Of a DNA stretch of 64,000 bases, positions 8,065 through 15,035 are shown piece by piece. Origin of the DNA: Escherichia coli (GTDB lineage Bacteria > Pseudomonadota > Gammaproteobacteria > Enterobacterales > Enterobacteriaceae); the NCBI RefSeq assembly GCF_045037415.1, contig NZ_CP173438.1; one strand, written 5' to 3'. Numbering within the stretch: the first letter of the stretch is position 1; each line of letters opens with the position of its first letter. The notes under the pieces are model-generated. The model worked only from the letters and a program-made list of their open reading frames with translations, was not told the origin of the DNA and searched no databases. The translations under genes and the position numbers were made by a program.

Positions 8065-8541
8065 TCAAAGTTGTACCAGTTTACAAAACTGGTTTACCCA
8101 TACTCTGGCATCATCAATAGTGCGAAAACCGTTCTCAGGCCACCAGGGACAATATTTGAGAGTCCGGAACAAAGATTCTGAGTAAGGATTATCATTACTG
8201 ACTCTTGGCCGGGAATAAGAACTTAGCACACCAAGCGCATACATTTTCGCCAACAACGTGTCACTGCGCATGGGACCACCGTTATCAGAATGGAGTACCA
8301 GATTGTTGGATGAACATTTTTCATTCCATACTGCACGCTGGAGTAGTTCTGCTGCATGTTTTCCAGATTCGCTGGCAAATACCTCAGCAGCAATAATTTT
8401 GCGACTGTAAATATCGACGATCATATAGAGGTAAAAATGCTGGCCTCTGACCCAGGACGGCAAATAGCTGATGTCCCAACTCCAGACTTGATTCGGTGCA
8501 ACGGCCCTGAGTACATCAGGCCAGTTTATACTGGCATTCAC
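8065..8541 (-). pseudogene. DDE (rve-type) transposase OrfB fragment of an IS3-like element, separated from its 5' part by the IS66 insertion
   Basis: Candidate DDE residues in WSWDISY, HSDNGGP and YSESLFRTLKY; ORF begins about 60 bp from the IS66 junction. Confidence 0.55.
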
Positions 8542-8693
8542 GGGATCGTTTCTTCAACTGCTTGGCTGATTTCAGTACACGATAAAAACTTGATTCAGAA
8601 GCAATATAAATGTAAGCGTAAAGCCAATGCCGTCTGTAACACCTGCTCCTTGCAGACTAAATTAGAGCTCCTTCTAAATTAGACGGAGTTCTA

Positions 8694-9131
8694 TTGATGG
8701 ATAAACCTACAGACTGGCGCTCCGGAACCCGCCGGATATTTTCTAATGAATTTAAACTTCATATGGTTGAACTGGCTTCGAAACCAAATGCCAATGTTGC
8801 ACAACTGGCCCGGGAACATGGCGTTGATAACAACCTGATTTTTAAATGGCTACGCCTCTGGCAAAGAGAAGGACGTATTTCTCGTAGAATGCCTCCAACT
8901 ATTGTAGGCCCTACAGTATCACAATCTTTTCCGGCCTCTCCGACTCTGGTTCCAGTGGAACTTATCGACACCCCGCGCTGTGCTACAGATGCTCCTGCTC
9001 CGGAGGCATTATCAGGTGCTTGTGCAGCTTCCTGCCATGTGGAATTCCATTACGGTAAAATGATGCTGGAAAATCCTTCACCAGAGCTGCTCACGGTGTT
9101 GATCCGTGAGCTGACCGGGAGGGGACGATGA
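8694..9131 (+). CDS. IS66-family accessory protein TnpA (orf1)
   Basis: 145-aa ORF at the start of the IS66 three-gene organisation; HTH-like N-terminus. Confidence 0.75.
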   Translation: MMDKPTDWRSGTRRIFSNEFKLHMVELASKPNANVAQLAREHGVDNNLIFKWLRLWQREGRISRRMPPTIVGPTVSQSFPASPTLVPVELIDTPRCATDAPAPEALSGACAASCHVEFHYGKMMLENPSPELLTVLIRELTGRGR

Positions 9132-9478
9132 TTTCACTCCCATCAGGTACCCGTATCTGGCTCGTTGCCGGCGTTACTGATATGCGTAAATCCTTCAACG
9201 GTCTGGGGGAGCAGATACAGCATGTGCTGGATGATAACCCCTTCTCCGGTCACCTGTTTATCTTCCGTGGCCGACGGGGAGACACGATTAAAATCCTGTG
9301 GGCTGATGCTGATGGTCTGTGCCTGTTCACCAAACGCCTTGAGGAAGGTCAGTTTATCTGGCCTGCGGTGCGTGACGGTAAGATATCCATTACCCGCTCG
9401 CAACTGGCAATGCTCCTCGATAAGCTGGACTGGCGTCAGCCAAAAACATCCCGCCTTAACGCACTGACAATGTTGTAA
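9128..9478 (+). CDS. IS66-family TnpB (orf2)
   Basis: 116-aa ORF MISLPSGTRIWLVAGVTDMRKSFNGL... matches recalled IS66 Orf2; 4-bp overlap with orf1. Confidence 0.85.
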   Translation: MISLPSGTRIWLVAGVTDMRKSFNGLGEQIQHVLDDNPFSGHLFIFRGRRGDTIKILWADADGLCLFTKRLEEGQFIWPAVRDGKISITRSQLAMLLDKLDWRQPKTSRLNALTML

Positions 9479-12481: not shown

Positions 12482-12733
12482 CTTATGACCTTTGTCAAAT
12501 ATTAAGCCCAAAAAGACCTTACGCAGCTCCGGGAGCTTCGTTATATCGCGGATTAAAGAACCTGAAACAGTCAGACTGTATCTTGGATTTTACAAACTCT
12601 TATTCGGGGATTTTAGCCCCATGACGATTTACGCAGTGAGCTGGCCTCTTTCTACGTGCAGGTATTAGCGCATTCTGGCTTCCCTGAATTCTTTTACGAG
12701 GATCACTCATTCCGTGTCTGACTGCTTCAGGGT
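12482..12733 (-). ncRNA. Candidate guide (bridge/seek) RNA locus of IS110-family copy 2
   Basis: Same as copy 1; inference from position only. Confidence 0.3.
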
Positions 12734-13867
12734 TTAATTTTGCTTCTGCTGACTGAATGATGATTGGGCAGCAAGTGCAATATCCCACATAAATCCAGTC
12801 AACTCACGAGCCACCGCCGTAATGGCTACTTGTGATTTTTTCCCTTTTGCTGTCAGACTTCGGTAACGAGAACACAATCGTTGTTGAGCTTTCCATGCAA
12901 TATCTTTGGAATATTGTGTTACAGAGTCCGGTCGGTAATATATAAGCCATGCCCCAACTTTTGCAGGTGTACGATAAGACCAGGCGGCTTCGTAAAGCAG
13001 ACGTCTCAGTTCGCTGTTTCCAACTTTTGTTATTCCTCTGGGACGAATACTGTTTCCACTGGAATATTCACCTGGCACCAGTCCCAGAAAAGCCATGAGC
13101 TGTTTGGGATTGGAAAATCGCGAAAAATCACCCAGTTCAGCAACCAGAGTTATTGCAATTAGCTGACCAACACCTTTAAGAGCCTGCAACTGGCAGACCA
13201 GATTGCACAGAGACCACTCAGGTAACAGGCGAGATATTTCCTGGTCGAGTTGAAGTATGCGATCTTCAATCTGCTCCAGACTCTGACAATAGTGTTGAAA
13301 AGCAATCTGTTGAGATGGCTGACTAAATGATTGATTAGCTAACCAGGTTCGATGTTTTCCTGTCCAGTGCTTTCCTGCATAATGTTTGTCTGTTCGCAAT
13401 AGCATGCTCAGAATTCGCTGTCGGGCAACTCTGCTGTCTCGTTTAGCTGCTGCACGGGCTCTGATTAGATCCCGCATAGCTTCATGAGTCAGGTCAGGGA
13501 TCCAGACAGGGGTAAGTTCTCCAGCCCGCAGTAACCTGGCGAGAGAAATTGCGTCCCGATGATCATTTTTGATTCTGTCTGTCGGTGATTTTGGTATGCG
13601 GGAAGGGGCAATAACCTGGCATTTTATATTCATCGCTGTGAGTTGATGATATAGCCCAAAACCACAGGGGCCAGCCTCATAGCAGGAAAGAATGTTTCCG
13701 TAAAGTCCCTGCAATTTCTGAAATAATCGACGTACAGCCTGGGCTTCGTTGTTAATCGTACCATAATAACGAACTTCGCCAAGCCGTTCAGGTGCAGCAA
13801 TAGCAACCGCCAACGTTTCTTTATGCACATCCAGCCCGACGTAAGCCGCAATATTTTCCGAATGCAT
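12734..13867 (-). CDS. IS110-family (DEDD) transposase, second copy
   Basis: Identical 377-aa translation to 11187-12320. Confidence 0.85.
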   Translation of the reverse strand: MHSENIAAYVGLDVHKETLAVAIAAPERLGEVRYYGTINNEAQAVRRLFQKLQGLYGNILSCYEAGPCGFGLYHQLTAMNIKCQVIAPSRIPKSPTDRIKNDHRDAISLARLLRAGELTPVWIPDLTHEAMRDLIRARAAAKRDSRVARQRILSMLLRTDKHYAGKHWTGKHRTWLANQSFSQPSQQIAFQHYCQSLEQIEDRILQLDQEISRLLPEWSLCNLVCQLQALKGVGQLIAITLVAELGDFSRFSNPKQLMAFLGLVPGEYSSGNSIRPRGITKVGNSELRRLLYEAAWSYRTPAKVGAWLIYYRPDSVTQYSKDIAWKAQQRLCSRYRSLTAKGKKSQVAITAVARELTGFMWDIALAAQSSFSQQKQN

Positions 13868-14276
13868 GATGACCTCCTCTGGAATATCCCACCAATGCTA
13901 TAGTGAGTATATAAAGGTCATATCATCTACGTGTTCTTCGGTAGCGATCACGGCGGCGAGCGTGGTGCACTGTTGTACGGGCTGATCGGCACCTGCCGGT
14001 TGAATGGTATCGATCCGGAAGCGTATCTGCGCCATATCCTGAGCGTACTGCCGGAATGGCCTTCCAACCGAGTTGACGAACTCCTGCCATGGAACGTAGT
14101 ACTCACTAATAAATAAGCGTCAATACGGTGCTCCGTTGACGCTTACATATAAATACCTCTGTCTGCCAGAGTTGGTACGATCACATTTGGAGGCAAGGAT
14201 GCAAACTCTGGAGAGTTGCACAACTCCAGTATTCGCAATCTTTCCGCTTCTGACAGCTTATTTCGGGGAGAGCTGT

Positions 14277-15035
14277 TTACAGTATCGGATCTTCGGTCCG
14301 TGGTGATGATGTTGCCATTAGTCCAGCGCTGAAGTGTCCGAATAGAAATACCGATACACCTACAAGCCTGACCTTTCCGGGCGCCGTTGGCGACGGCCTC
14401 ACGGACAAGAGAAATAATTTTATGCCGCTCCAGGAGAGGGGGCAGTCTTCCTCGCTGTTGTCCCAGAGGGCATTGAACTTTTCCCTTAATATAAGCAGGG
14501 CCGCAGCTTCCGCCAGAGCTTTATCTTTGCGCTTAAGCTCTTTCTCCAGTTCTCGTAACTTATTTTTTGCGTCACGCAATGCCCTGTCTGTTCGAATATT
14601 TTCCGTCAATTTTTTTCATGCGCCTGAATTGAGATAGCCCGCCATTCTTTAACCTGTTCAACAAACAATCCCATGCGTCGGCAATAATCGGCAAGCTCCA
14701 TTTCTGACAGTGTCAACGACGGATGAAAAGTGATCCACTATTGCACCGTTCGTGACAGACAGCGTAGCCGTCTCAAGAACAACTGAGAATCGACGCTCCG
14801 GTGTCCAGTCTTCAACATCAACGGAGGTAATCTTTTCATTTTCAGGTAAAAGTCCTTGCTCCACTAACTCACATCTCCATTTTGATACAACTGAGGCACT
14901 GATCTTCAGCTTCCGGGCTATCTGACGGTGTGACCAACAGTATGGTGGCAAAAGCCATATCAGTCCTTTTTCTTTGAGCTCATTTGGTATTGGTTGTCCT
15001 GGCATTGTTATCTCCTTAAAAAATTGAGGCGACAA
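14277..15035 (-). pseudogene. IS3-like transposase OrfA remnant (HTH part 14658-15035, leucine-zipper-like part 14277-14609), frameshifted
   Basis: HTH-like KGLIWLLPPYCWSHRQIARKLKISASVVSKWR and heptad-like ...KNKLRELEKELKRKDKALAEAAALLILREKF; two ORFs in different frames; family assignment tentative. Confidence 0.4.

Follow-up and report, generated by a model that had tools for sequence, protein, structure and literature searches.

What succession of events could leave two copies of one insertion sequence (IS) inside the transposase gene of another, and that second element inside a third? The question is raised by a locus in a 64,000-nucleotide stretch of Escherichia coli DNA (contig NZ_CP173438.1; hereafter the window, taken at its full length), in which a first-pass annotation had recognised a nest of three elements. 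The three layers were borne out by our analysis: ISEc45, of the IS110 family, lies in the tnpC gene of ISEc43, of the IS66 family, which in turn interrupts an IS3-family remnant. The innermost structure is an exact tandem duplication of ISEc45 together with 101 bp of tnpC, having the form A-[IS-B]-[IS-B]-C, where B denotes the 101 bp of tnpC. ISEc43 entered the IS3-family element by ordinary transposition, and we consider it probable that the unit of ISEc45 plus 101 bp was later duplicated by the DEDD recombinase of ISEc45 itself, acting with a putative guide RNA.

ISEc43 with its ISEc45 array occupies 8612-14146 on the plus strand, and those 5535 bp are accounted for by 2541 bp of ISEc43, the 1447 bp of one ISEc45 insertion, and a duplicated unit of 1547 bp. 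Within them we found an exact repeat of 1548 nt with a period of 1547 (10934-12481 and 12481-14028) and with zero differences between the two units, each of which holds 101 bp of tnpC that correspond to positions 2323-2423 of ISEc43. Aligned to the intact 2541-bp ISEc43, the structure reads as 1-2323, 1446 nt of ISEc45, 2323-2423, 1446 nt of ISEc45, and 2323-2541. The left crossover dinucleotide, of the target type, is TT (10933-10934), and CT stands at the homologous position in the ISEc23 and DUF4942 targets described below. There follow ISEc45 copy 1 (10935-12379, minus strand; 1445 bp of unique sequence); a CT core (12380-12381) with the first copy of the duplicated tnpC segment (12381-12481), the two together spanning 12380-12481 on the plus strand; an identical ISEc45 copy 2 (12482-13926, minus strand); and, at 13927-14146 on the plus strand, the CT core, the 3' part of tnpC, and the right inverted repeat of ISEc43. 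The novel junction created by the duplication, ...GCGTAT-CT|CTTATGACC, lies at 12480-12482, and the endpoint is a parental CT pseudo-site, ...GCGTAT-CT-GCGCC, at 14027-14028; the parental sequences that meet there share one nucleotide (T). Among 5,426 complete E. coli genomes, this junction between B and the IS was found in none, and the same locus with a single ISEc45 in 11. Positions 1-24000 of the window differ from strain 219 by one mismatch and by the one extra 1547-bp unit in the window.

Analogous rearrangements were found in five further strains by way of closely spaced ISEc45 ends and non-canonical flanks at an IS end, in a survey of other genomes that was opportunistic; together with the window they make six events, which we counted as independent. 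Two units are present with the 101-bp spacer of the window, with a 177-bp spacer in CH4804 (pseudo-site ...GTAGTA-CT-CACC), and with a 44-bp spacer in UPEC957C (...GGAGCA-CT-GCTG), while SCU-101 has three units with a 74-bp spacer (...TGCCGT-CT-GAACGG). In the other two strains the terminal part of the IS is itself repeated in tandem: the last 196 nt in C 691-04A (locus L009, 2315-2510; pseudo-site ...GCATT-CT-GGCTT) and the last 173 nt in ECamp083 (locus L015, 2331-2503; ...CCTCTTT-CT-ACGTGCAG). All six junctions join the identical ISEc45 terminus (TCTTATGACC on the plus strand; the right end in the orientation of the IS) to a parental CT, a dinucleotide that makes up 6.4% of those in the region, and the junctions show no more than 1-2 nt of microhomology. 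By our count of the spacer-type arrays, the window included, five of five are anchored at that same ISEc45 end. We found no description in the literature of tandem duplications in the IS110 family. The array of SCU-101 (locus L012, 1593-6078), with its three tandem units of ISEc45 plus 74 bp of tnpC, represents an amplification past duplication, and is present in both deposited assemblies of that strain; the partial repeats of C 691-04A and ECamp083, for their part, comprise the end of ISEc45 in which the non-coding RNA region lies.

The identity of the duplicated element rests on several agreements. The two transposase open reading frames (ORFs) of ISEc45 (11187-12320 and 12734-13867, both minus strand) are identical and whole, at 377 amino acids each, with the domains DEDD_Tnp_IS110 (PF01548, E=8e-16) and Transposase_20 (PF02371, E=7e-24), and they match the NCBIfam model NF033542, "IS110 family RNA-guided transposase", at 278.9 bits against a cut-off of 140. 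Their position is that of the coding sequence annotated as WP_000555401.1 in the near-identical locus of strain 219, and the transposase N-terminus matches the ISEc45 sequence in a published supplement (PMC11187229); what sets the window apart from the known ISEc45 is the tandem array of IS plus 101 bp of target. Non-coding sequence extends for 60 nt upstream and 252 nt downstream of tnp, and 10-bp subterminal inverted repeats, TATGACCTTT and AAAGGTCATA, start 2-5 nt from the tips; the downstream region and the subterminal repeats make up the IS1111-type layout as described (PMC11187229). ISEc45 thus shows the traits of an IS110/IS1111 element: both domains, the long downstream non-coding region, the subterminal repeats, and sequence-specific insertion without duplication beyond the core. 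In a circle of ISEc45 assembled in silico, a right-end TTGACA would come to lie 17 nt from a left-end TATGAC, the -10 hexamer being weak; a scan of 10900-12600 for sigma-70 promoters and terminators returned no sites. Apparent 76-nt ISEc45 "junction" matches, for example in E. coli 042, proved to be ISEc45 beside another variant of tnpC with a flank similar to the IS end. A second ISEc45 variant in E. coli 042 (locus L013, 1317-3058; 97.7% identity) lies in a further IS66 tnpC; an IS3-family fragment has taken the place of the non-coding RNA end of this variant, in a pile-up of nested ISs beside an ISEc43::ISEc45 composite.

An insertion of ISEc45 lengthens the target by 1447 bp, made up of 1445 bp and a 2-nt core; the core is CT on the plus strand of the window and AG in the orientation of the IS. 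The site in tnpC falls within the codons ...GKKN|Y/F..., at the same position in several diverged IS66-family tnpC genes (four tnpC variants), among them those of IS66-family elements about 88% identical to ISEc43. The target reads …GGAAAGAAAAA-TT-ACGTG… in ISEc43 and …GGAAAGAAAAA-CT-TTATG… in an ISEc23-type element. In a DUF4942 gene, unrelated to tnpC, ISEc45 is inserted at …GGTAAAGAGGA-CT-ACGAAG…, where the purine-rich flank is similar. That insertion is a full ISEc45 copy in E. coli strain 219 (locus L010, 3002-4447), about 22 kb from the locus homologous to that of the window.

The non-coding region downstream of tnp (10935-11186 in copy 1, minus strand; all its features recur at +1547 in copy 2) is a candidate seekRNA or bridge RNA. 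It folds better than shuffled sequences (z=-2.7), with a predicted long closing stem (11166-11184 paired with 11015-11032) around unpaired loops, in which lie two candidate target guides, GCACGUAG and GAAAGAGG (11098-11112, the former at 11105-11112). The loop sequence GCACGUAG-AAAGAGG contains the first of these, which would pair with the plus-strand target CT-ACGTG(T). The second, GAAAGAGG, is the only 8-mer of which 7 or more of the 8 positions pair, in a single register, with the three targets scanned. All 8 positions pair with a fourth variant, which brings the natural targets paired in this register at 7-8 of 8 positions to four. The DUF4942 target fits GAAAGAGG better than tnpC does, with 7 Watson-Crick pairs. 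Candidate donor guides (11076-11081 and 11050-11056) flank a hairpin at 11060-11074; of the sequences on either side of it, AUCGUC matches the left end of the IS and AUAAGAG the right. This assignment of guides is suggestive only; no description of an ISEc45 target or guide RNA was found in the literature. Between the start of the IS and the end of ISEc43 there are 106 CT sites, of which only four have 5 or more positions paired with GCACGUAG. These are the authentic junction, the DNA of the guide itself (11103-11104, and 12650-12651 in copy 2; the site used in ECamp083), position 14027 (the site used in the window), and one other. When the six observed crossover sites were compared with guide pairing, a Monte Carlo estimate gave p=0.018, the sites that match the candidate guide being two of the six (window and ECamp083). 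The crossover in ECamp083, lying within the DNA that encodes the candidate target guide, has the appearance of self-targeting.

How might such junctions be formed? Elements of the IS1111 and IS110 types are RNA-guided and form circles (PMC11187229); in ISPpu9, recombination takes place at an AG (= CT) dinucleotide, and alternative ends are used (PMC12288879); and a recent preprint argues for copy-out through top-strand transfer, by which the donor would be preserved as well (bioRxiv 10.1101/2025.10.25.684509). In ISEc45, the right end with its flank would be the well-specified half of the synapse, and recognition on the left side would be loose, since the left flanks of the natural targets also diverge. 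The authentic right-end junction would then have recombined with a CT site that lies 101 bp past the true left end and served as a pseudo-left-end. The exchange could have occurred in trans between sister chromatids, so as to yield a duplication and a deletion, or in cis, so as to yield an aberrant circle of IS plus 101 bp, which returned to the chromosome by homologous recombination. At other CT sites, the same reaction would give the spacers of 44, 74 and 177 bp as well as the internal repeats of 173 and 196 nt, and the triple array of SCU-101 would follow through homologous unequal exchange. The narrower proposition—that the arrays are footprints of an RNA-guided recombination that is in trans or replicative, in which the strongly recognised right-end junction and loosely recognised CT pseudo-sites, the DNA coding for the guide itself among them, lead to tandem amplification of the IS and adjacent DNA instead of deletion—we put forward more tentatively, as one that falls just short of an even chance.

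Several points weigh against this interpretation. Re-entry of a circle in dependence on RecA, sister-chromatid exchange, and nick-primed template switching at the right end are routes that we cannot tell apart. The bias toward one end (five of five spacer arrays) rests on small numbers from an opportunistic survey. Apart from the CT core, four of the six pseudo-sites have little to show, and their mimicry of the true left end is unconvincing. For the guide, about 0.08 chance matches to GAAAGAGG are to be expected after multiple testing, by our own estimate, and the sequences concerned are rich in purines or pyrimidines; a search of 7500-15500 against Rfam returned no family at E<=1. We also looked for the reciprocal 100-bp deletion product, but the outcome was uninformative, since as two-piece matches intact copies reach equal scores. 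Finally, the array of the window could in principle be an assembly error.

Among the alternatives, a tandem duplication driven by the host—through slippage, template switching or illegitimate unequal exchange, with no role for the recombinase—survives best, and we still regard it as unlikely. Tandem duplications at short microhomologies do occur in bacteria, the junction in the window does share one nucleotide, and the third copy in SCU-101 is explained by homologous recombination once a duplication exists. Against this stand the six independent events, each having exactly the same ISEc45 terminus at one boundary and CT at the other, along with a site choice that is biased toward complementarity to the candidate guide; a microhomology of 1-2 nt is, moreover, too short for slippage. 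It is the sharing of both the IS-tip boundary and the CT core that makes slippage by the host alone improbable.

Decidedly less probable is an artefact, in which the locus would carry a single ISEc45 as in the 11 relatives and the assembler would have supplied the extra 1547-bp unit. The uniqueness of the junction among the complete genomes, the 100% identity of the units, and the monomeric state of the closest relatives are all what an artefact would produce; yet an assembler would not be expected to err exactly at an IS terminus and at a CT that ranks among the best matches to the guide, and comparable structures whose spacers differ are present in assemblies made independently, two of these structures having been assembled twice. 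As for a true head-to-tail dimer or active junction, as known for IS30, IS21 and IS911, or two independent insertions of ISEc45 into tnpC (the reading implicit in the first-pass annotation, for which the two identical direct copies within one gene speak), the chance of either is negligible, for the ends lie 101 bp apart instead of being abutted, abutted ISEc45 ends occur in none of the 5,426 genomes, and two insertions would yield A-IS-B-IS-C in place of the A-IS-B-IS-B-C observed, so that both are refuted by a spacer that is a second copy of tnpC 2323-2423.

Recombination by ISEc45 itself, which we continue to prefer for the duplication, would have acted on a nest already in place, and the order of the layers can be read in part. 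The IS3-family element was first, the ISEc43 layer came later, and the tandem duplication was last. The IS3-family element is placed earliest because an empty site exists in E. coli Eco889, and the duplication latest because the two units show zero differences and the junction is unique to the window. The chronology proposed by the first-pass annotation therefore holds as regards the priority of the IS3-family element over ISEc43, and is not sustained for ISEc43 before ISEc45: ISEc43 without ISEc45 was found at this IS3 site in none of the 5,426 complete E. coli genomes, and the ISEc43::ISEc45 composite is present at other loci as well, as in E. coli 042. It is plausible that ISEc43 landed first and was then hit by ISEc45; the data agree equally well with an arrival of the composite as one unit through mobilisation in trans. 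An attempt to order ISEc43 and ISEc45 by single-nucleotide polymorphisms gave no order, since intact ISEc43 copies about 100% identical to that of the window are common.

ISEc43, whose name we take from the NCBI annotation, is restored to 2541 bp when the array is removed in silico; many intact ISEc43 copies are about 100% identical to the restored element and have the same tnpA-tnpB-tnpC order. On the plus strand, tnpA (8694-9131; 145 amino acids) and tnpB (9128-9478; 116 amino acids, TnpB_IS66) are intact; tnpC, by which the window copy differs from an intact ISEc43, is broken by the ISEc45 array after its codon 475, which leaves the copy unable to produce a transposase of its own. The 5' part of tnpC (9509-10933, plus strand), cut off by ISEc45, holds codons 1-475 (...LGKKN) with a match to DDE_Tnp_IS66 at E=3e-91, and the reading frame of the 3' part runs from 13928 through 14116 and carries DDE_Tnp_IS66_C. 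The further Pfam domains are HTH_Tnp_1, TnpB_IS66 (E=3e-36), zf-IS66 and LZ_Tnp_IS66, and the NCBIfam model transpos_IS66 is matched at 394 bits against a cut-off of 180. The terminal inverted repeats, GTAAGCGTAAA... and ...TTGACGCTTAC, have perfect ends and begin with GTAAGCG, and they are bordered by an 8-bp duplication, ATATAAAT, at 8604-8611 and 14147-14154, of which the empty site in Eco889 holds a single copy. The three genes with DDE_Tnp_IS66, the inverted repeats and the 8-bp duplication are all traits of the IS66 family.

From those same 8 bp and the transposase pieces in the flanks, the first-pass annotation had deduced a direct transposition of an IS66-family element into an older IS3-like one, and this deduction was confirmed. 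When we joined 7829-8611 to 14155-15087 in silico, with one copy of ATATAAAT removed, the resulting 1716 bp matched an uninterrupted copy in Eco889 at 1716 of 1716 positions, without gaps; because of this identity over the join, the insertion of ISEc43 is documented by a natural empty site, and not merely by an 8-mer that might have recurred by chance. The Eco889 copy lies in the same island context, with mobI, rhuM and a type I restriction system. The joining of the flanks, which had been suggested as a check, thus restored continuity with a natural copy; an intact orfAB was not restored, owing to indels and a 52-bp insertion. Both flanks do derive from a single minus-strand element of the IS3 family, as had been claimed, with the rve domain (E=1.6e-16) and the NCBIfam IS3 transposase model (E=1.3e-37) matched in the orfB fragment at 8065-8541; the extent of the remnant is 7829-15087, which corrects the span of 8065-15035 given at first, and the break is inside orfB in place of between orfA and orfB. 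ISEc43 interrupts orfB within "...LADRGIYIASESSFYRVLK", in the translation of the in-silico join.

The low-coordinate part of the remnant (7829-8611, minus strand) holds the catalytic region and 3' end of orfB, with +1 indels at 8090 and 8523. The high-coordinate part (14155-15087, minus strand) holds the orfB N-terminus, orfA, and an intact terminal inverted repeat ending in ...ATACGCA at 15087; a -1 indel lies at 14613 and a +1 indel at 15049, with the 52-bp insertion (14706-14757) between them. The ORF at 14277-14609 combines the orfA C-terminus with out-of-frame read-through, and the N-terminal part of orfB, at about 14155-14400, lies in a different frame. An intact relative in GN02100, of 1696 bp, is annotated with a programmed frameshift, is 96-98% identical to the window copy, and has terminal repeats of about 34 bp (TGCGTATT... 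and ...AATACGCA) with a target duplication, CCTGG. The copy in the window differs from that relative by three +1 indels, a single -1 indel and the 52-bp insertion, which break the orfA and orfB frames, and has lost the terminal inverted repeat of about 34 bp at its 7829 end, where unrelated sequence stands instead, only the 15087 end being kept. It does not have TG...CA terminal repeats on both sides with a duplication of 3-5 bp, and, judged by its sequence, is a remnant and not a functional member of the family. Because of these indels, the insertion and the lost repeat, the element was already dead when ISEc43 arrived; with its frames broken and tnpC split, only the innermost transposase of the nest is intact, as the first-pass annotation had stated. 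The 52-bp insertion in orfA, which is shared by Eco889, has imperfect terminal inverted repeats (TGTCAACGACGG... and ...CACCGTTCGTGACA) and GACAG direct repeats on both sides, and may be a tiny hairpin or an insertion resembling a miniature inverted-repeat transposable element. Two adjacent 23-nt direct repeats (TGGCATCTGAATCGATCGCAGTT and TGGCATTCGAATCGATCATGATT, 7779-7828) abut the point at which the IS3 terminal repeat was lost.

The island around the nest, at about 1-24000 of the window, contains genes for H-NS-like, inovirus Gp2-like, ProQ/FinO, MobI(A/C) and RhuM proteins and for a type I restriction-modification system, according to annotation transferred from the locus in strain 219, as well as fragments of IS256 and IS21.

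Direct tandem copies of an IS are a familiar arrangement. The (IS)2 dimers of IS30, IS21 and IS911 are by-products or intermediates of recombination by the elements themselves, and their ends, lying a few bp apart, form a hyperactive junction. The ISEc45 array resembles those dimers in having two direct copies, but differs from them in the 101 bp of duplicated tnpC that separate the ends. In the IS621 bridge RNA recombinase that Durrant and colleagues are said to have described in 2024, a CT core is reportedly common to donor and target, and guide segments in RNA loops reportedly flank the core. The CT core of ISEc45 fits that of IS621; the latter, however, belongs to the IS110 subgroup and has its RNA upstream, and ISEc45 tolerates a TT core in ISEc43, to judge by the sequence. 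With ISPpu9 (Pares-Guillen et al. 2025, PMC12288879), ISEc45 would share the AG (= CT) crossover, the alternative end-like sites, and the movement of modules of different content, whereas ISPpu9 has conserved A'/B' boxes and minicircle products, and the sites of ISEc45 share little beyond the core and its products are tandem duplications fixed in the chromosome. ISEc21 (Siddiquee et al. 2024, PMC11187229) is an RNA-guided element of the IS110 type and resembles ISEc45 in having its specific target inside the transposase gene of another IS family, so that it accumulates as an "IS within IS"; its non-coding region, in contrast, is upstream and its target is a conserved stretch of DDE codons in IS3-family transposase genes, whereas ISEc45 has a downstream region and uses the tnpC of IS66-family elements and a DUF4942 gene.

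The three elements are known and their nesting is ordinary, and the nesting in itself documents only the history of an E. coli island; the recurrent, end-anchored duplication of ISEc45 plus its flank at a CT core appears to be undescribed. The recombinases of IS110/IS1111 elements are under development as programmable genome editors, and the mode of their excision, as cut-out or copy-out, is disputed (bioRxiv 10.1101/2025.10.25.684509). The CT-core junctions anchored at one end provide testable material on the minimal needs of the enzyme—a core and, to one side of it, a few bases paired with the guide—and the set as a whole also bears on which half of the synapse is permissive and on how an element is duplicated in vivo together with neighbouring DNA. 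If the narrower proposition on RNA-guided amplification is true, it would reveal a route, hitherto undescribed, by which IS110/IS1111 elements amplify themselves along with neighbouring sequence, and would supply in-vivo evidence both on cut-out versus copy-out and on the off-target rules of bridge recombinases.

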